The notes under the pieces were generated by a model. It was not told the DNA's origin. It saw only the letters and a program-made list of their open reading frames with translations, and made no database searches. From a virus (taxonomy: Duplodnaviria > Caudoviricetes), in the IMG/VR virus record IMGVR_UViG_3300033075_001021: a stretch of DNA of 64,000 nt. The stretch is one strand, 5' to 3'. A program made the position numbers and the translations under genes. Shown piece after piece: positions 4,337 through 56,546 of the stretch; positions within the stretch are counted from its first letter, which is position 1; each line of letters starts with the position of its first letter.

Positions 4337-5296
4337 ATGAAGGAAAAAATCTTACTTGTTGGCGGCGCTGGCTATATTGGTGGTTTGACCTGCGACCATT
4401 TAATCAATGCTGGTTTTGATGTAACAGTATATGATAATCTTCTATATGAAAATAGATATTTAAAAGAAATACCATTTGTATATGGTGATATTAGAGATAC
4501 ACAAAAACTATACGAAGTATCAAAGGATTATGACATTATTGTATTAATGGCTGCGCTTGTTGGTGACCCAGCATGTAGTGTTGACCCAATCCTAACAGAA
4601 GAAATCAATTACAAGGCGATTAAAGATTTTTGTGATGTTGTATTGCCAAACAAACACTTGGTGTTTATGTCAACATGTTCCGTATATGGCGCACAAGATG
4701 GCTTATTAAACGAGGATAGCCCAACAAACCCACTTTCATCATATGCCTCAACTAAACTAAAAGCTGAAGAACACGTATTAAAACTAGGTGGAACGATATT
4801 TAGATTGGGTACTGTCTTTGGACTTGGTGATACATATTCAAGATTAAGAATGGACCTTGTAGTCAATGTTTTGACAATGAAAGCGGTTAAAACTGGTACA
4901 ATAACAATCAACGGTGGTGAACAATGGAGGCCAATAATTGCAGTAAAAGATATTGCTGGATATGTAACTGAAGCATGTCAAGAAAAATACGCTGGTGTAT
5001 ATATTTTATCAAAAGAAAATGTTGTAATCAGAGAGCTTGGTGAAAAAATTGCCAAGTTAGTACCTAACACAGAAGTTAAATACACTGAAATTTCTTTTCA
5101 AGATGCAAGAAACTATAAAGTTGACAATACAAAATCATTAAATACATTTAAGTATAAACCAATGGTTAGTGTTGAAGACGAAGTAACAAGAATGGTCAAA
5201 CTATTCCAAGAACATAGAGTAGAGGACCCTGAAGATAAAGTTTATCATAACGGTGCCTTTCTAAAAAATAAAAAAGAACAAAATCAATTAATATGA
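4337..5296 (+). CDS. NAD-dependent epimerase/dehydratase
   Basis: GGAGYIG, STCSVYG and YxxxK (YASTK). Confidence 0.92.
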   Translation: MKEKILLVGGAGYIGGLTCDHLINAGFDVTVYDNLLYENRYLKEIPFVYGDIRDTQKLYEVSKDYDIIVLMAALVGDPACSVDPILTEEINYKAIKDFCDVVLPNKHLVFMSTCSVYGAQDGLLNEDSPTNPLSSYASTKLKAEEHVLKLGGTIFRLGTVFGLGDTYSRLRMDLVVNVLTMKAVKTGTITINGGEQWRPIIAVKDIAGYVTEACQEKYAGVYILSKENVVIRELGEKIAKLVPNTEVKYTEISFQDARNYKVDNTKSLNTFKYKPMVSVEDEVTRMVKLFQEHRVEDPEDKVYHNGAFLKNKKEQNQLI

Positions 5297-5715
5297 GTGA
5301 ATTAATTACAACATATATTGGCGGGATTTCAGTTGATGATAGAGGTCAATTACGTTTTGTGAATGATTTTAATTTTGAAAACGTAAAAAGATTTTATCAA
5401 GTAGAAAACCATAGACAAGGCTTTATAAGAGCATGGCATGGCCACAAAAAAGAGGGTAAATACGTTTATGTTGCCGCTGGTACTGCACTTGTAGGTGTCG
5501 TAAATATGGATACTGAACAAGTTAGCAAATTTATTTTAAGTGCAAAGCAACCAAAGGTATTATACATCCCACCAAATCACTATAACGGATTTAAAAACCT
5601 CGAAGAAAATACGTCGGTTATTTTCTTTTCAACATCAACCCTAGAAGAAAGCATGGGTGACGACATAAGAATGCCACACGATAAATGGAATATCTGGGCA
5701 GAAGATTTTAGATAA
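5293..5715 (+). CDS. RmlC-like cupin (dTDP-sugar epimerase/isomerase)
   Basis: DDRG, RAWHGH, LYIPP..YNGF. Confidence 0.8.
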   Translation: MSELITTYIGGISVDDRGQLRFVNDFNFENVKRFYQVENHRQGFIRAWHGHKKEGKYVYVAAGTALVGVVNMDTEQVSKFILSAKQPKVLYIPPNHYNGFKNLEENTSVIFFSTSTLEESMGDDIRMPHDKWNIWAEDFR

Positions 5716-7492: not shown

Positions 7493-7523
7493 CAAGTTTC
7501 CGATATTTATATAAAAAACCTGC

Positions 7524-41070: not shown

Positions 41071-41445
41071 TTAATTTGAAAGTGGCGCTTTGATTGCTGG
41101 TTGTGATTGATAACATATCGTAATAATTAACCCTCTACTAACATTAAGTTCTCTTGCAACGGATGCCGACGTTAATTTTAATTTACTTACTAACATTTTA
41201 TCAACTATTAAATCAGAATTTTTTTCTCTATATCTATATAACATCCATTGTAATTCAAAAAATATAGAACCCCAATTAATGGTACCATCGTTGTTAATAG
41301 GTGTTCTTAATTTTAATGTTTTTCCAATAAACTCTTCGGAAATTCTTATGTCAGGGATTGCTTGTGAAAAATAAACAAAGTCATCATTAATTTTCTTACA
41401 ATAATCCCTATCCTCGGTTTCAGTAAATTGATTAATATCTATCAT
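41071..41445 (-). CDS. Hypothetical protein ending in a copy of the ThyA C-terminus
   Basis: YQSQPAIKAPLSN* vs ThyA YQSHPPIKAPLSN*; 21 identical nt. Confidence 0.7.
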   Translation of the reverse strand: MIDINQFTETEDRDYCKKINDDFVYFSQAIPDIRISEEFIGKTLKLRTPINNDGTINWGSIFFELQWMLYRYREKNSDLIVDKMLVSKLKLTSASVARELNVSRGLIITICYQSQPAIKAPLSN

Positions 41446-41449
41446 TTAT

Positions 41450-42184
41450 TTAATTTGAAAGTGGCGCTTTAATTGGTGGGTGGGATTGATAGTTTTCTAA
41501 TTGAAAATCAAACACGTTATAACAAGATATATCAGTTGGTAAAATATCTTTACATGGATTATGCAATATGTTTAATGTGGGTAACTCAAGAGATACTCTA
41601 GTAATCTGCTCCTTAGCCTGCTCAATATGATTTGAATACAAATGCACATCACCTAAACTACCAATTAGTTCATCTGGAATCATATTCACTTCCTTAGCAA
41701 TAATCTCTAACAACAAACCATAACTTGCTATATTGAAAGGTAAACCAAGAAATGTATCTACTGAGCGTTGGTTCCACATTAGAGAGATTGCTCTGGTTGG
41801 AATGTTATCATCATTTAATGATTTTTTCAATGAGTCCATTTCATCACTGTATCCTCCAAATGTAGAATAAAATTGTTCCCAATCATTTCTAAAGTTCCCT
41901 CTCTTACAACGTATTTCATATCTTTCCCATAATTTCAATTCTCTTGTATAAACTTGAAATCCATAATGACAGGGTGGGAGAACCATTTGGTCTATTTCAC
42001 CTACATTCCAAGCATTAACCATTAACCTACGGCTATCTGGATTTGTTTTGAGTTCGGAGATTAAGTTTGCTATTTGGTCAATACCTTTATTACCGAACTC
42101 ATTATTAAATTCTTTGTCTGTTTTCAATTTTTGTAAAAACTCTTCTTTTGTAAATGGGGTTCCGTCTTCGTGTTTATATTTCAT
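41450..42184 (-). CDS. thyA: Thymidylate synthase, C-terminal half
   Basis: IDQI, PDSRR, LPPCH, QRSVDTFLGLPFN, DVHLYSNH. Confidence 0.93.
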   Translation of the reverse strand: MKYKHEDGTPFTKEEFLQKLKTDKEFNNEFGNKGIDQIANLISELKTNPDSRRLMVNAWNVGEIDQMVLPPCHYGFQVYTRELKLWERYEIRCKRGNFRNDWEQFYSTFGGYSDEMDSLKKSLNDDNIPTRAISLMWNQRSVDTFLGLPFNIASYGLLLEIIAKEVNMIPDELIGSLGDVHLYSNHIEQAKEQITRVSLELPTLNILHNPCKDILPTDISCYNVFDFQLENYQSHPPIKAPLSN

Positions 42185-42456
42185 AACTTTATTTTTCTTT
42201 CTAATGTTGCTGGTTTTCCAGAAATGATTAAGTTCTTTTTTATACCCTCAAAAATTGTAATATCATCATAAGGACTTATAATATATATTATTTCAGTTTT
42301 ATCTTTATTTAATCCCACAGTTAAAGTCTGGTAAGGATGATATGAGTCATAAAATATATCAACTCCGTCAACTACACCTAATTTAACAATACCTTCCCAT
42401 TTCTTGTCGGGTTTAATAAATTCTGGCCCATTACAATCATACTTACTGTCTATCAT
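42181..42456 (-). CDS. Small protein with similarity to a gp23 C-terminal segment
   Basis: GI..LG...G....D.Y.P.....VG....YI..PY pattern. Confidence 0.55.
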   Translation of the reverse strand: MIDSKYDCNGPEFIKPDKKWEGIVKLGVVDGVDIFYDSYHPYQTLTVGLNKDKTEIIYIISPYDDITIFEGIKKNLIISGKPATLERKIKL

Positions 42457-42460
42457 ATAC

Positions 42461-43153
42461 TCAATTTATATAAAACCAATTTTTATATTTTTCTTTATGT
42501 TTCTCTGACCGACCCCTACCTTGTAATATCCATCTAACAGAAAATTCATTCATATTAATAAAGTCCGCAGCCGCTTTAGCGGATTCAAATTCAACACCAT
42601 CTATTGAACATCTCTTGTTTGATGTTGAAGGTAGTTTTTTTCCTTCATATTTTTTTAACTTATCGGTGTTTGCTTTATTTGATATATTTGAACCATTAAA
42701 TCTACCTTTTAACCATCCCCCCTCAACAATTTTCGGGTCATTGGGGAATGCTCGTAGATTTGTTCCGTCAGGTTTATGATACCATTTAGAACCCTTTATC
42801 TTTTCTCTACTAGCGTTTATCTGTGATTCCGATGGTTTGAACTTTTGCCATATTTCTAACATTTTATGTTTAGCATATTCATATACCCTTGAAGATGGTT
42901 TATATCTTTGTTGATTATCTGAATTACGGCACATTGACCAAAAGGCGTACCTTAAATCACTATTTTCTGGATACATTTCATGTAATAACCAATGAATTAA
43001 AAAATGTTCTCTCGCAGTTAAATCCACTAAATTATTTGGTTTATTAGTTCCATTCATACATTTTGGTATAATGTGATGTTTTTCAACATATCCTTCTAAC
43101 TTTCTGTTTTTTGCTCTCTCAATAAGGTCGTCGTGTATTTTTTTGTAGTCCAT
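42461..43153 (-). mobile_element. MobE-like HNH homing endonuclease
   Basis: YKKIHDDLIERAKNR..GYVEKHHIIPKCMNG..NLVDLTAREHFLIHWLL. Confidence 0.9.
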
Positions 43154-43201
43154 AATTACCATTGTTTACTATACATAAATATGGTAATAAATGGAAAAAT
43201 A

Positions 43202-43744
43202 CTACTTATCTTTAACTTTTTTCAAATAATCTTCATAAAGCTCATCATCAGATTTACCATTCCAATTACGCCAACCAGCCCCATACACGGGGCCTAGTTC
43301 ACCCCACTTCTTTGCAAACTCATCATCGGTTTTAATTTTATCAATAAATTCTTCCATTGTAAATTGACCATCTAGTTCAAAGGCAGATAAACCGTTTATT
43401 TCAGTTGGTTGAACTGATTTGATTTTAAAATCATGTGGGTTAGACGAAAACTGTGATTTGTTTAAATAATTCTTATAAGCATCTCCATTCCAAATATGAC
43501 ATTCATCTTCAATTAGTGATTTTATATTGGTGTCACCACGAAGAAACCAAAGCAATTCAGCTACGATACCCTTGAAGTACATTTTTTTGGTTGTAAGCAA
43601 AGGAAACCCATCTTGCATGTTATGACGAATTTGCCAACCAAAAATTGATTTGGTTCCAGTTCCAGTACGGTCTTTCTTACCGTCACCAAAACGAATAATA
43701 AAATCAAGTAATTCTCGATATTGTCTGTCTAAGTTATTTGCCAT
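43202..43744 (-). CDS. thyA: Thymidylate synthase, N-terminal half
   Basis: DRTGTGT, FPLLTTKK, ELLWFLRGDTN, LGPVYG..WRNW. Confidence 0.93.
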   Translation of the reverse strand: MANNLDRQYRELLDFIIRFGDGKKDRTGTGTKSIFGWQIRHNMQDGFPLLTTKKMYFKGIVAELLWFLRGDTNIKSLIEDECHIWNGDAYKNYLNKSQFSSNPHDFKIKSVQPTEINGLSAFELDGQFTMEEFIDKIKTDDEFAKKWGELGPVYGAGWRNWNGKSDDELYEDYLKKVKDK

Positions 43745-44121: not shown

Positions 44122-44198
44122 ATCTTAACAATTTTACAAGGTTTATTATACTTTTCACAAAGAGAAATGCTATGTTGTGTTCCACGTGAAATACCATT
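44118..44198 (-). pseudogene. Orphaned 3' end of the SLOG/YspA-like gene
   Basis: NGISRGTQHSISLCEKYNKPCKIVKI* vs DQKSKGTLHSINLAKELKKPIRIITF*. Confidence 0.82.
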
Positions 44199-44767
44199 TA
44201 TTTTATAATATTTTTATCTTTTAAATTAAGATATACTGAGCTAATCCAATGTATAAATTCATCGTGATGGTATTTGTTTTTGATGAAATTACATTTTGAA
44301 CAACATGGAACGACATTATCTAAATAATACCCTTTTTCGTTATCTAATCTGTCAATACCATTAAACTTATAAGGTCCATTTAATTTTTGTTTTTTAAACT
44401 CAAAAATAGGTTCAGTTCCGCAATAATAACAATCGGATTCAAAGATTTTAATCATCTCCTCATCGGTTAGATTAAAACTGATTCCTTTAAATTTTGCATT
44501 ATGCCTATAATTGTAAATCAATGCGTTTCGATTAGCTATTCCAAATGCTTTTCTCCTTTTTGCCCCGTAATCAATTTCTTTTTTTATACAACCACAACTT
44601 TTAGTATGGTTATTAACTACTTTAGATGCTTCTACTATTACTATATTTCCACAATCACATTGACACTTATATTTTTTTCTTTTATAAGAAGCTTTTGGCA
44701 TTACTTCAATAATCAATAATTTATTAAATTTTTTTCCGATTAATTCATCTTTCTTATTTTGTTCCAT
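44198..44767 (-). mobile_element. Free-standing HNH homing endonuclease
   Basis: CQCDCG..TKSCGC N-terminal module; CYYCG..GIDRLDN..GY..NVVPCC..CN..K. Confidence 0.88.
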
Positions 44768-44801
44768 TAGTATTACTTTAATAATAAATATAGCAATGGA
44801 A

Positions 44802-45143
44802 CTAAAAGGTTATAATTCGTATCGGTTTTTTTAATTCTTTAGCTAAATTAATTGAATGTAATGTCCCTTTTGATTTTTGGTCCCAAAATGCAATTACATA
44901 ATCAGCATTTTTGATGATATCTTCATTACGTATAAAGCCAGCTGATTTACCATATTTGTCCCATTCAGGTAGAAAGATAAGAGTATCTATGCCGTGTCTT
45001 TCAGCCCACTGTTCACCCATCTTATCAGCACCTTTGGCACCACCTGACACAACCAATTCGATTTGAAAAATCAATGGGTTCAATGTTTCATTTAATAAAT
45101 CAATGTCATTGAACCCACGACTCCCAATAATGGCTAATTTCAT
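44802..45143 (-). CDS. SLOG-family (YspA/DUF2493-like) protein
   Basis: IIGSRGF, VSGGAKGAD, GKSAGFIRN, AFWD.KSKGT. Confidence 0.85.
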   Translation of the reverse strand: MKLAIIGSRGFNDIDLLNETLNPLIFQIELVVSGGAKGADKMGEQWAERHGIDTLIFLPEWDKYGKSAGFIRNEDIIKNADYVIAFWDQKSKGTLHSINLAKELKKPIRIITF

Positions 45144-49128: not shown

Positions 49129-50000
49129 TGAAAGAAGCGTTATTACAGAAAGCAAAAGAACTGGTTAACACAAGACCAATCAAAGGATATTCGGCTAAAC
49201 CACTTAAGGATGCTGCCAATACCGATATGACGTTATTTGCTCAGTATCTTTTAAACATTGCGGAACAAGCTATGGACCCAGCAAGCTTAAAAGCAACCAT
49301 TGAAACTTATACCAAAGATTTAGTTGACATAGCACGATTATTTGCTAAGGAAAATCATGCGCTTAATGAGGAAAAAATAAAGGGTGGTAAAGCAGATAAT
49401 TTATCAATTGATGATATCGCAAAAAAGTTTGACATCAATCCATCTAAAATTAGAAAAGAATTAGTCATGGGGGTGGAAGTTGAATTAGAACATACAGATA
49501 GCAGAACAACGGCCAAGGAAATTGCAATGGACCATTTATCTGAAATTCCAGATTATTACACCAGATTAAAAAAGATGGAAAAAGACGGAAGTAAGAAATG
49601 GACAACAGAATCAACTGTATTAATTAAGAAATTATTACATGAGGGGTTAAAATACAACGCCGCATCAACTTTGCTACTTGACTTTGGTTTTTTAATTTCA
49701 AATAATTTTAGTCAAATAACAAAAATGGGTAAAGATGCAACAGCAACCAAAGAATTAAATCTTATGATGCAGAACCTAAGAAAACCAATCATAAACGGTC
49801 AAAACTATTTTGAAATCACTAAAGATGTTAATTCAGTAATAAGAAATCCAAAAATGTTATCAGCTGTTCTAGGAAAAATAAGAGAGTTTTTAATATATAT
49901 TGAACCTAGAATACAAAAATTTGTTATTGATAATGAATTTAAAAAACATTGGTTGGAAAAAATCAATGGATTAAAATCCCTATATAGAAGTATAATTTAA
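49128..50000 (+). CDS. Multi-module protein containing a DUF5661-like segment
   Basis: GVEVELEHT..AKEIAMDHL.E.PDYYTRL. Confidence 0.65.
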   Translation: MKEALLQKAKELVNTRPIKGYSAKPLKDAANTDMTLFAQYLLNIAEQAMDPASLKATIETYTKDLVDIARLFAKENHALNEEKIKGGKADNLSIDDIAKKFDINPSKIRKELVMGVEVELEHTDSRTTAKEIAMDHLSEIPDYYTRLKKMEKDGSKKWTTESTVLIKKLLHEGLKYNAASTLLLDFGFLISNNFSQITKMGKDATATKELNLMMQNLRKPIINGQNYFEITKDVNSVIRNPKMLSAVLGKIREFLIYIEPRIQKFVIDNEFKKHWLEKINGLKSLYRSII

Positions 50001-50153
50001 ACCAATATATTCGTGACTAAAACATATACGTTTGTTATCAGCATAATGAGCATTGTAAACATTTTTATGTGTCACATCCTTTCTTAATTTTTTATTCTTG
50101 CTTGTTGGTTTCCATAAAGGCGAATGTTCACGGTAATAACCCATACGTGGATG
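49980..50153 (-). pseudogene. Orphaned 3' end of the GNAT gene
   Basis: 40/51 aa identical to the region starting HPRM in 50884..51045; no start codon. Confidence 0.92.
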
Positions 50154-50193
50154 CTTTTACTACTTTTCCACATATTTATTAATAAATTGCAAT

Positions 50194-50910
50194 ATGCCGA
50201 GAAGATTAACAACGCAACAATTCATTGAAAGGGCCAATAAAATTCATAATAACAAGTACGACTATTCAAAAACTAAATTTGTTAATAGTAAAACTAAAGT
50301 TATTATTATTTGCCCAATACATGGGGAATTTGAACAGTTTCATAACAAACATCTATCTAAAAAGGGATGCCCAAAATGCGGTTTTATATCAAGATGTAAC
50401 TTAGCAAGAAGTACTTCACATGATTTTATTACCAAAGCGATAAAAATTCATGGTGATAAATATAATTACGATAATGTTATTTATACAGGTAAAGAAAATA
50501 AAGTAACAATAATTTGTGAAAAACACGGAAGCTTTAATCAAACACCACATAATCATTTAGCTGGAAATGGTTGCCCACATTGTAGAGAATCAAAAGGTGA
50601 ACGTGAAATAAAACAATTTTTAATTGAAAATAATATTAAGTTTATACCACAAAAAAGGTTTAAAGATTGTCGTCACATATTACCACTACCTTTTGATTTC
50701 TATCTTCCTGAATATAATATGTGTATTGAATATCATGGTATACAACATTTTAAACCGAGAAGTAAATTTGGTGGTGAAATTGAATTTAAGAAAGTTGTTT
50801 TAAGAGATAAAATAAAAGTTGAATATTGTATAAAAAATAAAATAAAACTTAATATCATAAAATATAATGACAATCTTTTAGAATTACTTACATCCTATGT
50901 ACTCAAATGA
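50194..50910 (+). mobile_element. Homing endonuclease, DUF723-like zinc repeats plus EDxHD/Vsr-like nuclease
   Basis: Two IH..KY.Y..IIC..HG.F.Q..HL..GCP.C repeats; SKGE; LPFDFYLP..IEYHG.QH. Confidence 0.85.
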
Positions 50911-51363
50911 ACCACAAACCCTTTTATTATCTCCATAGTGATTGTTATAAATATTTTTATGTGTTATGTCTGTTCTTAATTTCTTATGTTTACTAGTTGG
51001 TTTCCACAAAGGTGAGTGTTCTCTATACCAAATCATGCGTGGGTGGGCCGTTCTAGAAAAGTAACGTAACCCCTGTTCTAAGTGAATCTGACCTATTGCA
51101 TCAGAAAACCTTACCCCAATACCCATTCCTTGAAAATCTGGCAAAATAACGGTCCTATGACCCCTCCAAGCGTTTTTCATGTTACCATTAGGTAAAGCAA
51201 GACTGGCACAAAACGCAACAACCTCATCATTCCAAACACCAACATAACATCTTGCGGCCTTATTGATATCTCCACTCAAATAATGATGGTCTTTAAACAT
51301 GGGCCAGATATGATGGCTTGCTGGATAAATCTCAATTTTGATTTCTGGACGGGCAAAAAAAAA
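50884..51363 (-). CDS. GNAT acetyltransferase domain, -1 frame continuation of the ABC ATPase
   Basis: RPEIKIEIY..W.MFKDHHYL; RTVILPDFQGMGIG. Confidence 0.8.
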   Translation of the reverse strand, partial: FFFARPEIKIEIYPASHHIWPMFKDHHYLSGDINKAARCYVGVWNDEVVAFCASLALPNGNMKNAWRGHRTVILPDFQGMGIGVRFSDAIGQIHLEQGLRYFSRTAHPRMIWYREHSPLWKPTSKHKKLRTDITHKNIYNNHYGDNKRVCGSFEYIGCK

Positions 51364-51953
51364 CCTTGGTGAAATTCACCAGTATCAGTGTCAATAACCC
51401 AATCTGGTTCCAACCATTCTAAGATATCACGATGACAAGTTGCTAATACAACATTATTGATATCGTTGTTTTTAATGTAACGTGATAATGATACACTAGC
51501 AGCCTTAGCAACGTTTCTATCAACGACACTACTAAATTCATCAATTACAGCATTTGATTCTAATTTACGAGCAACATCAGCCCTAAACTTTTCACCATTA
51601 GATAATACCTCGTATGGCTTATACCAAGAAGGAATCGTATTTAAACCGACAGCGCCCATTTTATTGATGGCTTCATCTGGTGATTCAAAATGTGAAATGA
51701 TTGGCAAATGATTGGACCAGATTGGTTTTTCTTCTTGACCAAAGTTTTTTAATAACGTTGATTTACCAGAACCACTTGAACCAACAATTACGCCTATCTT
51801 AAATTCTTTTGGGAGATTGATAGGAAGTTCCCATGGATAAAACTTTGACGTACCATCAAAAATACAATCAAAGGCTTTCTCACTAGCCTCAATAAATTTG
51901 TCTTTCTGGACAGTAGATGTTAAAGGAATGTTTGATTTGATGAGTTTTTCCAT
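51276..51953 (-). CDS. ABC-type ATPase domain
   Basis: GSSGSGKST, LSNGEKFR, IDEFSSVVDR, TCH. Confidence 0.87.
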   Translation of the reverse strand: MEKLIKSNIPLTSTVQKDKFIEASEKAFDCIFDGTSKFYPWELPINLPKEFKIGVIVGSSGSGKSTLLKNFGQEEKPIWSNHLPIISHFESPDEAINKMGAVGLNTIPSWYKPYEVLSNGEKFRADVARKLESNAVIDEFSSVVDRNVAKAASVSLSRYIKNNDINNVVLATCHRDILEWLEPDWVIDTDTGEFHQGFFLPVQKSKLRFIQQAIISGPCLKTIII

Positions 51954-52064
51954 GCAAATAATATATGCATGAATTGTAAAAAAATAAATGGTAAGTATGG
52001 AAAATACAAAGCTAGAGCGCATATTTCTTACGCTCTAGCCCATATTTTGTTCATCCAGAATGGA

Positions 52065-52265
52065 TTACTTAGATTTTGTTAATTTGTTAACTTTAGCTTC
52101 TAAAGCAGCAATTTTTTGTTCAAGAATCGCACTTTTGTTACCTTTAGATGCTTGTTCAGCTAACCATTCTTTCTTTTTGATGCTAACTGCTTCGCTAACG
52201 ATGTTATCGATTAAGTCGACCAAATCACCTTCAGAAATTTTAACTGTTTTCTTTACGTTTGACAT
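52065..52265 (-). CDS. Small coiled-coil protein
   Basis: KKTVKISE..L..I..IVSE N-terminus; hairpin downstream at about 52011..52039. Confidence 0.6.
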   Translation of the reverse strand: MSNVKKTVKISEGDLVDLIDNIVSEAVSIKKKEWLAEQASKGNKSAILEQKIAALEAKVNKLTKSK

Positions 52266-52349
52266 GTTCAATAGATTTTAAGAATTTTTTATCTTACTAA
52301 TAAATATGGGATTTTTTAGAAAAAGATAAAAAATTCTTATAACCCATTA

Positions 52350-52394
52350 TTAATGAGCGTATTTGTCACCACCATAGCTTGCTGCCCAAGCATC
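52350..52394 (-). pseudogene. Orphaned 3' end of the YkuK-like gene
   Basis: DAWAASYGGDKYAH* vs ESWAASYGGDRYCH*. Confidence 0.88.
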
Positions 52395-53160
52395 ACCTAA
52401 ATTTACAATTTTCAAAATGCCATCGCTTACCGTTTCCGATATCAACAACTTTATTACAGTATGGACATCTTGTTTTTGGTTGTTCTTTACCTTTATTATG
52501 TGCTTCCTTTCCTTTATTTGGATGTACATTTAAACGATAATATTCTTTTAATTTTTCAGATTGAATTTTATTTAATTCTGGGTTATTTTGTCTAATTTTC
52601 TTTTGTGTTTGCGATATTCTTTTCTTTTCTTCTTCTGATTTCGGCCCTGTTGAAACACCCTTATTCCACGCAGTTTGTTTTCCCTTAACACCTTTATTCC
52701 AAGGCACCCTACCCACAGATGGATGTTTAGTTTTTTTATACTTTTCTTTTAATGATATAGATATTTTTTGTTTTATTTCATTTGTTGGTGTATATGGTTT
52801 ACCATGATATATGACTTCACCGTTTTTATACCGTTCTTTTAATGTTTCTGAAATTTTAGTTTTAGAATCTTTTGATAATATACCATTACTCTGACCCCCA
52901 GTTTTTAGATTGTAGGTATCCTCACGATTAACCCAATTTTCGGTTACATATTCTTTTTCTTCCTGAAGTAATTCTTCTAATGAATTACAATATTTTAATA
53001 TTTCACGTTTAAAATTTTCCTTTCCGTATTTTTTTAACGCTCTTTTAAAAGCTAATCCGCTACCTAAATACCCGTCATCCAAGTTTTTAGTTTGATGAAT
53101 TCCAATGTAAACCTTATTGTTAATTAAGTTAGTCGTCTTGTACAAAATAAAATACTGCAT
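52393..53160 (-). mobile_element. Free-standing GIY-YIG (Seg-like) homing endonuclease
   Basis: ILYKTTNLINNKVYIGIH, YLGSG, YN; NUMOD3-like K.KIS and WNKG repeats. Confidence 0.9.
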
Positions 53161-53212
53161 ACTATTATTTTTAATAATAAATATGCAGCATCTTATAATG
53201 AGGATAAAAAAA

Positions 53213-53722
53213 TTAATGACAGTAACGGTCTCCCCCATATGAGGCGGCCCAACTTTCGGGCTTAATTTTGAACTCATATCCCATACCAAGTATGTAACCA
53301 ACAGCGTGGCTAAGAGCCTTGTTAGACTCCCACCTTGGGTCTGGATTAATGTCGGCGTGTATTTCCATCTTAACACCGTACTTTTCAAGGACAGGAGAAA
53401 TTTCGTATGCTACTTCAATAGACTTACCTACTTCCATAATCATTCTTTCATTAACACCTTCCTTGTCCTTCTTGAAGGTATTCATGTGGTAAGTAGCAGA
53501 GATTATCTTACCACCTCTACCCACAGATACACCATCGCCAAGATTCTCCCTAACAGTAATCAATATTACTGTCGCAAACTTATATCCTCTACCACTCCTT
53601 TGAGAGTCAGTACCTACGGAAATCCTTAATTCATGATTAAGGGCCATTTCTTCTTGAATCAAGTTGTCAAGATAATCGTTAATTGGCATGTCAATTTTTT
53701 TGCCAGCTCTTTCCCACTTCAT
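53213..53722 (-). CDS. RNase H-like YkuK-family protein
   Basis: VGTDSQ, EVGKS, EIHADIN, KP.SWAAS..D. Confidence 0.82.
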   Translation of the reverse strand: MKWERAGKKIDMPINDYLDNLIQEEMALNHELRISVGTDSQRSGRGYKFATVILITVRENLGDGVSVGRGGKIISATYHMNTFKKDKEGVNERMIMEVGKSIEVAYEISPVLEKYGVKMEIHADINPDPRWESNKALSHAVGYILGMGYEFKIKPESWAASYGGDRYCH

Positions 53723-53752
53723 AGTTTTTGCTTTTGTTTTATATTTATTGTT

Positions 53753-53938
53753 ATGAAAAAATTACTATTCTTCTTATTGTCAATAATACTGTTTAGCGCT
53801 TGTGTAACAGTTAAACCTACTACACCACCCCCAAAACCAACCGTAGTAATTTTAAAAAAAAGACATGTGCTTTTCTTTAATAAACACTACCGTTATTATA
53901 GACGAGTACAAAGAACAGAAATTATTATTATAAAGTAA
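53753..53938 (+). CDS. Small Pro-rich lipoprotein
   Basis: MKKLLFFLLSIILFSAC lipobox; TATTTAT upstream. Confidence 0.6.
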   Translation: MKKLLFFLLSIILFSACVTVKPTTPPPKPTVVILKKRHVLFFNKHYRYYRRVQRTEIIIIK

Positions 53939-53971
53939 AATGGCCCCCATTTCTGGAGACCATCATCATCT

Positions 53972-55384
53972 TTAAAACTTTGTTGAAGGAAGCAGCTCCC
54001 TCAACCTTTGATAATTTTCTTCTCCAATTTCTTCTCGTTTAATCGCAAGACGAAATAACGAGCCACCATTACTTTTATCCAAATATGCAATCTCAGATGG
54101 AATACTTTCAATCGGATTCCCCGTTAGATTCATAAATATTAGTTTTTTAAGCCCACCAATCTCTTTCGGTAACGACTTAATTCTGTTATTCGTCAACACC
54201 AACATCTCAAGATTTGAGAGCGAACCAATAGACGGATGCAACTCAACCAGCTTGGCACCAGTAATAATTAATTGGTCCAATTGTTTATACCTGCTAAGGT
54301 CTGGCAATCTTGGTATTTCCCTTGTCATAAATGTTATTGTCGGTGTTTCAGGTTCAATAAATTCAAATAAGCTTTCGCAAAATCCAAACTTAATTAATGC
54401 ATCCAAGTACTTGTTGTTGTCCAAACCGCTTTTACAGTCTTTAGCCATGGCCATCAATTCCTCATAAAAGAAATTAGATAATCCTTCGCTTTCATGAATT
54501 ACGGTTTCAAATATACTTACGTTACTTGAATTATGTCTATCCTTTATCTGATTACTCTCAAAGTGAATTTGATATATCTCTTGAGACTCTCCAGTAAAGA
54601 ACTTATTGTTGATTATTACATAAATATCCGACTTTTTACCATTAGGCTTTAATTGGTTGGTGTAACTGGTAAACATACTATTACCTGGTCTTGCCGTACA
54701 CCAGTTCGCAAATTTATTAAATACTGTCGCAGCATCAGTTGTTAATGGGATATAAAGCGTAAACTTTCTATCTCTCACGGGTATCAATGCACTACCAATA
54801 TTTACATATCGCTGTAACAATGATTCCATCTCAGTCGGGTCCCTTTCAATAAAGGGGTCAACCGCATCAAACAACTGTGATAACGATTTGTACTGATTAA
54901 TGTCTGTCGGGTCTTTAACATGCTTCAAAACATAAGACTTCTTACAAAACTCTTTAAACTTGTTCTTACGCTTATTTGCCTCAAACAATGAAATATAACT
55001 ATTTGCTTGTGGCAAATCTTCACTAATGAACCTAATTGCCGCTTGAATATCATTCTCTTTCCCACTCTTAAGCAATCTTGTAAAAACGTTCAACATCCAT
55101 TGAACACAAGATTTATTAGGTGTAGGGTCCGCAGCAATCACATCTGAAAAGACATCAAGACTAACAGATATGTTCCCCGTGGAACGTTCACCACCCTCTT
55201 TTAAGGGCGCAAAAGACATTATCGCTAAAAGTCTATCACCATTTTCATTGGTGTAAGCCTTGAATTCGTACCCGTCAGACTTCAGCTGATTGAATTTCTT
55301 ATCAATCTCATCTCCTTGAGTATCAAATACATCGAACTTTTTAGCCAAAAATTCTATCCTATCGGCAATTTTAGTTTCAATCAT
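53972..55384 (-). CDS. Protein with C-terminal leucine-rich repeats
   Basis: LxxLxLxxNxIxSLPxEI repeats; WCTA motif; TATATTTG upstream. Confidence 0.8.
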   Translation of the reverse strand: MIETKIADRIEFLAKKFDVFDTQGDEIDKKFNQLKSDGYEFKAYTNENGDRLLAIMSFAPLKEGGERSTGNISVSLDVFSDVIAADPTPNKSCVQWMLNVFTRLLKSGKENDIQAAIRFISEDLPQANSYISLFEANKRKNKFKEFCKKSYVLKHVKDPTDINQYKSLSQLFDAVDPFIERDPTEMESLLQRYVNIGSALIPVRDRKFTLYIPLTTDAATVFNKFANWCTARPGNSMFTSYTNQLKPNGKKSDIYVIINNKFFTGESQEIYQIHFESNQIKDRHNSSNVSIFETVIHESEGLSNFFYEELMAMAKDCKSGLDNNKYLDALIKFGFCESLFEFIEPETPTITFMTREIPRLPDLSRYKQLDQLIITGAKLVELHPSIGSLSNLEMLVLTNNRIKSLPKEIGGLKKLIFMNLTGNPIESIPSEIAYLDKSNGGSLFRLAIKREEIGEENYQRLRELLPSTKF

Positions 55385-55437
55385 ATTAATCAATACAAAA
55401 GCAAATATACAAATTTTTTTTCAAAAGTCCAAAAATA

Positions 55438-55779
55438 TTACATGAATCTTTTAAAGAAATCCTCATCCAAATATTCCTCAACTCTTTTTAAAAGAAATGT
55501 TACTAAAAAACTTAATTCGTCTTGGTTGTATCTAGACGCAATTTCTAGAAGTAAATAATTCGGGTCTTCCCCATCAGTCAAGCGATATTTTATCTCTTCA
55601 AAGTATTTACCATTATCTATTTGAAACAATTCTTTTATTATCAAATTATATGTTTCCCATCTTTCCTCTGTTTCCTCATTCATCTCAACCAATAAATTAT
55701 TGATTAATTTATTATACGCTTTATCTAAATTTGAGTTCTTACCTGACCCAGATTTTACAATGAAATCTATAAACGCCAT
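55438..55779 (-). CDS. Hypothetical protein, paralog of 55886..56206
   Basis: W.TYN.II.EL..Y.LTD..DPN. Confidence 0.7.
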   Translation of the reverse strand: MAFIDFIVKSGSGKNSNLDKAYNKLINNLLVEMNEETEERWETYNLIIKELFQIDNGKYFEEIKYRLTDGEDPNYLLLEIASRYNQDELSFLVTFLLKRVEEYLDEDFFKRFM

Positions 55780-55811
55780 ACGAATGTTTTTTAATAAATG
55801 TTATGATATTA

Positions 55812-55835
55812 CATAACGAAGTTAACTTCGTTATG
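55812..55835. repeat. Perfect 24-bp palindrome
   Basis: CATAACGAAGTTAACTTCGTTATG. Confidence 0.9.
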
Positions 55836-55885
55836 ATGATACTTAAAAAGTTGACATGTTGAAATTGATTTTGTTTGAAGAAACT

Positions 55886-56206
55886 TTAAAAGTTTTTTAT
55901 TTTTTCGTAAAGCCTTTGTAACTCTGGTGAACGATGTTTCACCTTTCTTAGAACCTCAATACACGCTTTGTTTGGGTCTAAATTATCTGTAAGTTTATAT
56001 TGTAATTCTTTTACTCTTAAATTATCTTTGATTGAATGCTTAAGCTCTAAAATAACTTGATTATACGTTATCCAAGCTTTCTTATCGGTTAAATTTCCAT
56101 CAGCCAGAGAATCGGTCACCTTATCTTCGTAAATGTGTTCCAAATGCGTTTCAAACTCACCATACTGAGATTTCAACGCTTCTCTTATTTTGGCTTTAAT
56201 GTCCAT
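55886..56206 (-). CDS. Hypothetical protein, paralog of 55438..55779
   Basis: WITYNQVILEL..YKLTDNLDPN. Confidence 0.7.
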   Translation of the reverse strand: MDIKAKIREALKSQYGEFETHLEHIYEDKVTDSLADGNLTDKKAWITYNQVILELKHSIKDNLRVKELQYKLTDNLDPNKACIEVLRKVKHRSPELQRLYEKIKNF

Positions 56207-56207
56207 A

Positions 56208-56546
56208 CTAATTCATTGATACATTCCTCGATAATTGATTACCTTTTAGTGTGCCAAACGCCCAATCTTTAATAACTTGTTGCGTAAAATCATCACTAGT
56301 GCCGTATTTCTTTTTCATGTATTCAAACAATTCCCCAGCACTTATTTGATTTCCGTCAACCACAACCTCAAACATCGGAACATCACGATATTCACCATCT
56401 TCACGTATAGCAGCAACCATTGGTTTGTAATTCTTTGACAAATCATTAACCATGGTTTTAACCATATTTTCATAAACAGAGTTTTCATTAAGATGCTCTC
56501 TTAATAAATTAAACTGCCTTTCTGTTATAATCATTTTAACACCCAT
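56208..56546 (-). CDS. Hypothetical protein
   Basis: KMIITERQF N-terminus; TATTTAT upstream. Confidence 0.65.
   Translation of the reverse strand: MGVKMIITERQFNLLREHLNENSVYENMVKTMVNDLSKNYKPMVAAIREDGEYRDVPMFEVVVDGNQISAGELFEYMKKKYGTSDDFTQQVIKDWAFGTLKGNQLSRNVSMN

Follow-up and report, generated by a model that had tools for sequence, protein, structure and literature searches.

Why should a single phage gene possess two ends? The question is raised by a 64,000-nucleotide (nt) stretch of viral DNA (Duplodnaviria; Caudoviricetes; IMG/VR record IMGVR_UViG_3300033075_001021), hereafter called the window, in which an intact gene for an RNase H-like protein is followed directly by a putative GIY-YIG homing endonuclease gene and then by a second version of its own last 14 codons. 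We consider it highly probable, from the comparison of sequences, that the locus holds a terminus-replacing homing element, that is, an 863-nt mobile unit made of a gene tail, a spacer and a nuclease gene, inserted in the genome of a T4-like phage. The pieces of the locus are the following:

53722..53213, minus strand: host RNase H-like gene of the YkuK/DUF458 type, 169 amino acids (aa), intact (PF04308, 86.9 bits; phrog_11311)
53258..53293, minus strand: last 36 nt of the resident gene body (..GMGYEFKIKP), ending at the insertion point after codon P155 (DNA conservation table)
53213..53257, minus strand: in-frame replacement end ESWAASYGGDRYCH, 14 codons plus stop codon, part of the cassette (compared with nuclease-free tails)
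53161..53212, minus strand: cassette spacer, 52 nt, which holds the ATATTTAT motif
52393..53160, minus strand: predicted free-standing GIY-YIG homing endonuclease gene, 255 aa, intact (phrog_314; I-TevI fold match)
52350..52394, minus strand: displaced resident end, or relic, DAWAASYGGDKYAH plus stop codon, joined to no reading frame (tail comparison with nuclease-free relatives)

The cassette (863 nt, 53257..52395, minus strand) sits exactly between codons P155 and D156 of the host gene and contains, in this order, the 14-codon end, the 52-nt spacer and the 255-aa GIY-YIG gene. The open reading frame (ORF) of the host gene is left intact and its 169 codons terminate in KPESWAASYGGDRYCH: the in-frame end has the length of the native tail, keeps the invariant D165 and brings its stop codon to the homologous place. 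The relic reading begins at 52394, its first codon, GAT, overlapping the nuclease stop codon by two bases, and its own stop codon lies at 52352..52350. A preliminary description, made from the letters of the window, had noticed such a second end, identical at 10 of 14 positions and starting within the nuclease stop codon; the sequence confirms it, and the span that it gave, 52350..53257, runs exactly from the relic stop codon through the first base of the in-frame end. The two ends share 10/14 residues and 30/45 bases, a likeness that exceeds chance because the pair obtained E = 2e-6 when each ORF end of the window was scanned against its own 3 kilobases (kb) downstream, while background matches of own-tail peptides in related loci reach 4-7/14 at most. 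Upstream of the first relic codon, an ungapped comparison of five lineages found no homology in any of them, and the cassette therefore ends sharply at the KP|D junction. We had also considered that the relic might reach back into the last nuclease codons (KFR vs KIKP), and dropped this since homology stops at the D/E codon in the same five lineages.

The gene that receives the cassette is a well-defined member of its family. It scores 86.9 bits against the RNaseH_like profile PF04308 (curated cutoff 25 bits), covering profile positions 14-144 of 145, and the AlphaFold model of its product, computed with 19 homologues, has a predicted local distance difference test score (pLDDT) of 81. A fold search with this model returned weak matches to RNase H1, RNase HII, RuvC and Piwi, at template modelling (TM) scores of about 0.3. 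According to the model, the swapped 14-codon segment is the last predicted helix of the protein. Within this segment D165 is invariant in 19/19 homologues and retained in both copies, so that the conserved Asp which the preliminary description placed in the swapped tail is indeed there. Close to the junction, G142, Y143, G146, M147, G148, Y149, K152, K154 and P155 are likewise invariant, and the 36-nt block that precedes the insertion point is near-invariant at the DNA level in 48 nuclease-free alleles. We propose that this block is the left half of the homing site.

What did the locus look like before the cassette arrived? Relatives were drawn from about 150 loci with the host gene, collected in three scans; like the window, all belong to uncultured or metagenomic assemblies. 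L176 (88% aa identity), the nearest of the relatives that lack the nuclease, aligns to window positions 56225..53229 and then again from 52394 on, its single tail being covered twice. Its working tail, DAWAASYGGDKYAH, equals the window relic in 14/14 residues, with 11 base differences that are all synonymous, whereas the in-frame tail of the window agrees with it in 10/14 residues. The same empty-site pattern is found with L019/L160 (75% aa identity), whose tail is identical to the relic in 13/14 residues, and with L113 when it is compared with the nuclease-bearing L106. The preliminary description had claimed that the tail of the gene was replaced by a co-oriented GIY-YIG cassette, and the perfect match of the L176 tail to the relic, together with the L106/L113 contrast described below, supports it. 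It had also pointed to relatives with both tails and no nuclease as the finding that would speak against replacement. Such relatives were not encountered: the nuclease-free loci examined, about 65-75 distinct contigs, carry a single tail each and none has a second one.

An intact and rightly placed relic, equal to the working tail of L176, is also what would be seen if the locus contained a self-splicing intron or another spliced element, the relic being the true last exon and the in-frame tail a read-through of unspliced RNA. We judge this very improbable: no Rfam family, group I and group II introns included, was matched at E <= 1 on either strand of 49800..54000, and the 45-nt tail, the 52-nt spacer and the 768-nt ORF fill the insert and leave no room for a ribozyme core. 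Besides, from one lineage to another the relic lies at different distances and in different frames relative to the nuclease stop codon, which also means that the nuclease is not extended into the relic by read-through.

Insertion of a cassette that brings its own gene end has apparently occurred repeatedly. Seven loci (the window, L101, L106, L117, L133, L158 and L200) bear the nuclease, all of them at the KP|D junction, the orthologues occupying the same site in six other uncultured contigs and being 49-70% identical. In six of the seven (the window, L101, L106, L117, L133 and L200) a relic starts 0-10 nt behind the nuclease stop codon, and the relics of the five relic-bearing loci other than the window end in a stop codon of their own. 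An assembly artefact that joined the gene ends of two strains might be feared with uncultured or metagenomic material, but six independent contigs, from different samples and differing in sequence, repeat this arrangement in the same order, the two copies flanking a complete nuclease gene; this recurrence rules mis-assembly out, and we give that explanation practically no weight.

Which of the two ends, then, is foreign? The tails of nuclease-free neighbours designate the in-frame one. The relic is clearly closer to them than the in-frame end in 4 of 6 cases (the window, L101, L106 and L117): 34/45 bases for the relic against 25/45 for the in-frame tail when the window is compared with L160, 34/45 against 22/45 for L101 and L103, 37/42 against 23/42 for L106 and L113, and 34/42 against 22/42 for L117 and L107. 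A second comparison of L101 with a nuclease-free neighbour gives 31 for the relic and 26 for the in-frame tail. The cleanest pair is L106/L113, whose gene bodies are 92.5% identical and match at 28 of the last 30 body bases: the L106 relic differs from the L113 tail by five bases, all synonymous, while the in-frame tail differs from it at 19/42 bases, in 7 synonymous and 4 non-synonymous codons. The differences between relics and neighbours are nearly all synonymous (synonymous/non-synonymous codons 9/1, 5/0 and 6/1), which points to recent insertion.

The two tails of each genome nevertheless have lineage-specific features in common (YGGD.Y.H in the window, YC.DH in L101 and ADK.C in L106), and no donor of the in-frame tail turned up among viral contigs or sampled tails. 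Both observations would fit a local origin, in which the tail was duplicated in place as the nuclease gene landed and the in-frame copy then diverged fast, for example under selection to escape cutting, with nothing imported. We find this quite unlikely because: (i), the L106 and L113 bodies are closely similar and yet the in-frame tail differs at 19 bases and the relic at five, (ii), the differences are mostly synonymous, as expected from long divergence under purifying selection and unlike escape, and (iii), the nuclease is scattered on the tree of the host gene, so that the cassette moves, and a moving cassette carries its tail with it.

This scatter was seen on a maximum-likelihood tree of 54 gene bodies (54 rows), six carriers included. 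Six changes of nuclease presence are needed to account for the six carriers, four pairs of carrier and non-carrier sisters have starred support, and the nearest relative of each nuclease-bearing genome is without the nuclease. Combined with the resemblance of the relics to the resident lineage, the scatter speaks for repeated invasion and against a single old insertion.

The inserted gene is, by sequence family and structural model, a predicted Seg-like GIY-YIG homing endonuclease. Its 768-nt ORF (ATG at 53160, stop codon TGA at 52395..52393) would encode an I-TevI-like catalytic domain at the N-terminus, then repeated K.KIS..LK modules and, at the C-terminus, a zinc-finger-like CPxC..H..C end, and matches phrog_314 ('homing endonuclease') at E = 4.8e-43. 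PF01541 is matched by five of six nuclease orthologues (best E = 1.5e-5) and PF19835 by all six. The three best Foldseek matches of the nuclease model in the Protein Data Bank are the I-TevI catalytic domain (1MK0 and 1LN0; probability 0.99-1.0, TM score on the target 0.50-0.59, 88-92 aligned columns), the model having a pLDDT of 61-84 over residues 1-80 and of 63 on average over its whole length. Six orthologues share Y7, Y18-I19-G20, E68 and N84 without exception, and these residues align with the corresponding ones of I-TevI. A profile of the nuclease family searched against solved structures gave a weak I-TevI match (E = 0.11), and sequence searches of the Protein Data Bank returned no match for either the host protein or the nuclease.

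Is the nuclease still at work? It is conceivable that the locus is an old scar of a past homing event, with a nuclease now inactive, or domesticated and serving the phage otherwise or not at all. The seven orthologues are indeed merely 49-70% identical, meaning that no very recent transfer is visible between the sampled genomes, and the Pfam score of the window nuclease stays below the curated cutoff. But the ORF is intact and full-length in all seven lineages, with catalytic-type residues and the zinc-finger-like end conserved; the relics are still open and nearly unchanged as proteins, which argues for recent insertions; and the nearest relative of every nuclease-bearing genome has no nuclease. 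We thus regard the old scar as unlikely.

The cassette also contains a promoter-like motif. The octamer ATATTTAT lies at 53184..53177, 24 nt before the nuclease ATG; the window contains 35 copies of it, of which 19 lie 12-25 nt before ORF starts on the coding strand, and it is likely a promoter element of this phage group, associated with very short leaders. Copies are found, for example, at 7503, 10570, 16304, 28492, 39360, 44791, 50172 and 53184. Given its occurrence before many ORFs of the window and in the spacers of orthologous cassettes, the promoter-like signal of the cassette is of a type native to the phage. The spacer measures 47-54 nt in five of six loci with a homing endonuclease gene (HEG) and 85 nt in L158. 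Both the octamer and the nuclease ATG lie within a hairpin predicted at 53196..53147 (-22.7 kcal/mol); as a conserved control element this hairpin was not upheld, its arms being common to the window and L101 only.

From this anatomy we infer how the element may propagate. During co-infection, the nuclease would cut nuclease-free alleles at or near the conserved ..GGTATGGGTTATGAATTTAAAGTAAAACCA|GAYGC.., and the break would be repaired from the nuclease-bearing genome. The gene body would serve as the left homology arm, and the donor's relic with the DNA downstream of it as the right arm, pairing with the recipient's own tail. The recipient would gain a new in-frame end together with the nuclease gene, and its own end would be pushed behind the nuclease as an untranslated relic. 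The host gene would remain whole, since the catalytic-type Asp is kept, and the site, now split or respelled, would no longer be a target. The preliminary description had suggested that the nuclease targets a conserved motif near the gene end, which fits the data because seven lineages have the insertion at one and the same point, right after the near-invariant 36-nt block. I-TevI-type GIY-YIG enzymes can also cut away from the insertion point. As for immunity, the sequence GCN TGG at tail codons 2-3 occurs in none of six in-frame tails, in 3/5 relics and in about 45% of empty alleles; this departure gives a weak hint of where immunity may lie.

Several observations weigh against this reading. 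In the pair L133/L128 the result is equivocal, the relic matching at 33/42 bases and the in-frame tail at 32/42, and in the comparison of the window with L176 the contrast is small at the DNA level (relic 34/45, in-frame tail 30/45), so that for the window the case stands on the protein level (14 against 10 of 14 residues) together with the sister lineages. L200 seems to have the reversed polarity: its in-frame tail is the one that matches a nuclease-free neighbour, L206, at 44/45 bases, the gene bodies being about 83% identical (compared stretches L200:2351..3210 and L206:2650..2700). Either the relic of L200 arrived with the nuclease, co-converted from the donor, or the tail moved without the nuclease. 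L158 has the nuclease and no relic, and may represent an ancestral intergenic state or a locus from which the relic was deleted; in L158:3441..4420 the nuclease stands behind the RNase H-like gene after the 85-nt spacer and has three extra C-terminal residues. A degenerate DNA search of viral contigs did not find the donor of the window in-frame tail, for which the best match among all sampled tails reaches 32/45 bases. No signature of co-conversion, in the form of lower identity just upstream of the junction, is visible; co-conversion within the body would leave no visible trace, because the last 36 nt are near-invariant in all relatives. Finally, the window nuclease scores below the curated cutoffs of PF01541 (19.5 bits, cutoff 22.6) and SegE_GIY-YIG PF19835 (22.4 bits, cutoff 25), and its catalytic Arg could not be placed, the corresponding I-TevI stretch having no counterpart in the alignment.

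The layout of the cassette is known from yeast and from fungal mitochondria; it is not a new principle, and what the present locus offers is an unusually good comparative series. Each homing event of a WHO element, known from the yeasts Torulaspora and Lachancea, substitutes the 3' end of FBA1 (Coughlan et al. 2020, eLife; PMC7282813). The model proposed for these elements leaves the old 3' end as a downstream fragment that serves as a recombination site or arm; their functional unit combines the nuclease gene with the preceding gene end, which confers resistance, and the host gene has discordant histories in its 5' and 3' parts (PMC7282813). A nuclease directly behind a host gene with a replaced 3' end, the old end downstream and the discordant histories are all seen here. 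The differences are of several kinds: the WHO nucleases are intein-like LAGLIDADG/zinc-finger proteins acting in a eukaryotic nuclear genome with meiosis, whereas here a GIY-YIG protein is found in a phage; the replaced piece is just 14 codons long and there is no tandem array of older relics; and cleavage and allele specificity, established by experiment for WHO (PMC7282813), are proposed here from sequence comparison.

A second precedent is provided by the gene hybrids made by mobile endonuclease ORFs (mORFs) in fungal mitochondria, described for atp6 of Allomyces macrogynus (Paquin et al. 1994, as cited in PMC3630166) and for atp6, atp9, cox2 and nad3 of Glomus (PMC3630166). These mORFs bring a foreign in-frame C-terminus and leave the native one downstream, where it is much closer to that of related species (PMC3630166). 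As in the window, a foreign in-frame end is carried and the native end lies behind, and the atp9 case likewise involves a GIY-YIG protein (PMC3630166). The mORFs differ in residing in organelle genomes, and several of them are in-frame fusions with the host gene. Here, by contrast, the host gene terminates at a stop codon of its own, and the nuclease starts independently, behind a separate promoter-like motif.

To our knowledge, the Seg and Mob genes described among phages are either intergenic or divide a gene into two parts, as in nrdA of Aeh1, and have not been described with a replacement gene end and the old end left behind. Seg and Mob enzymes are the free-standing homing endonucleases of T4-type phages and are associated with intronless homing (PMC2790892 and PMC2330249). 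The resemblance to the window is close, both in the T4-type phage and in the free-standing GIY-YIG gene of modular, I-TevI-like build. The elements spread by cutting the nuclease-free genome and co-converting the flanks (PMC2790892, PMC2330249); the corresponding cleavage in the window would be of the same kind. The nearest phage precedent found is that of the 'HEG-islands' (Barth, Dunham & Seed 2023; PMC10055350), where, in the part of the article available, small genes beside HEGs are described as fragments of neighbouring cargo genes and suggested to be recombination substrates for later homing. Gene fragments thus lie beside HEGs there as here, but in that part of PMC10055350 they form a passing remark, without an insertion point, a replacement end or a comparison of relic and resident tails. 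In the phage literature that we searched for replacement gene ends, no description went beyond this remark on fragments (PMC10055350).

The window phage itself is a T4-like myovirus, as indicated by its gp20-type portal, gp23-type capsid and T4-type terminase genes. No close cultured relative was found by BLAST against cultured-phage records: the DNA matches did not extend beyond 140 nt in the nuclease domain, and no cultured-phage protein exceeds 36% identity to the RNase H-like protein. The ORF-end scan also found a second case of the layout 2 kb away:

50001..51300, minus strand: GNAT-like gene (51300..50884) with nuclease and relic (ORF-end scan)
50194..50910, plus strand: DUF723/phrog_559 endonuclease gene, antisense to the GNAT gene (Pfam/PHROG match)
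50153..50001, minus strand: 51-codon relic of the GNAT end, 40/51 identical (ORF-end scan)

The insert at the GNAT site is present in L019, L020, L018 and L002 and absent from L176, L001 and most others, and the second nuclease, whose ATG is at 50194, is likewise preceded by a copy of ATATTTAT, at a distance of 22 nt. It is tempting to speculate that terminus-carrying cassettes are a general mode of phage homing, as yet undescribed for phages and the counterpart of the WHO elements, in which the relic would be an obligatory right arm and the imported end the determinant of immunity, and which would have been adopted by unrelated nuclease families (GIY-YIG and DUF723-type) at four or five genes within 64 kb of this lineage; we rate the chances of this generalization as slightly short of even. 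In a sharper version, relics may be protein-perfect because loss of the cassette regularly returns them to service as the working end, an idea prompted by the finding that all 11 differences between the window relic and L176 are synonymous.

The same scan listed further duplicated gene ends. That of a SLOG-family gene (45143..44802) is matched at 44189..44127 with 10/21 identities (region 44127..45143). In the thymidylate synthase (thyA) region (41074..43744), the end of 42184..41450 is matched at 41112..41074 (11/13) and that of 43744..43202 at 42154..42083 (13/24).

At 50884..52022 an ABC-type ATPase ORF (248 aa) and the GNAT ORF (138 aa), both assigned to phrog_11143, overlap by 25 nt. This two-ORF form is found in nearly all relatives, while L006 and L118 have one fused ORF of 362 aa; the pair could be two overlapping genes or the product of a programmed frameshift. 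Between the RNase H-like gene and a 68-aa gene, most relatives (L004..L020, e.g. L011:4593..4754) have a 50-53-aa ORF (M.RYALKTK.GE...) that is absent from the window, L001, L002 and L019, and extra genes of unknown kind occupy the same spot in L006 (247 aa, 4712..5455) and L008 (350 aa, 4535..5587). This site is a hot spot of gene gain and loss. At 55438..56206 of the window, a pair of small genes next to each other (113 and 106 aa) are paralogous, with 41% identity over 39 residues.

The locus thus suggests how a selfish nuclease can occupy a conserved phage gene without intron or intein, namely by bringing a respelled copy of the piece that it displaces. Seven lineages that carry the nuclease, set beside numerous empty sites, provide a natural series in which the target site, the changes that would confer immunity and the need for the relic can be studied. 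For annotation, such cassettes explain short orphan ORFs and abrupt changes of ancestry at the ends of phage genes, and they call for caution, as the final codons of such genes may have a history unlike that of the rest of the gene.

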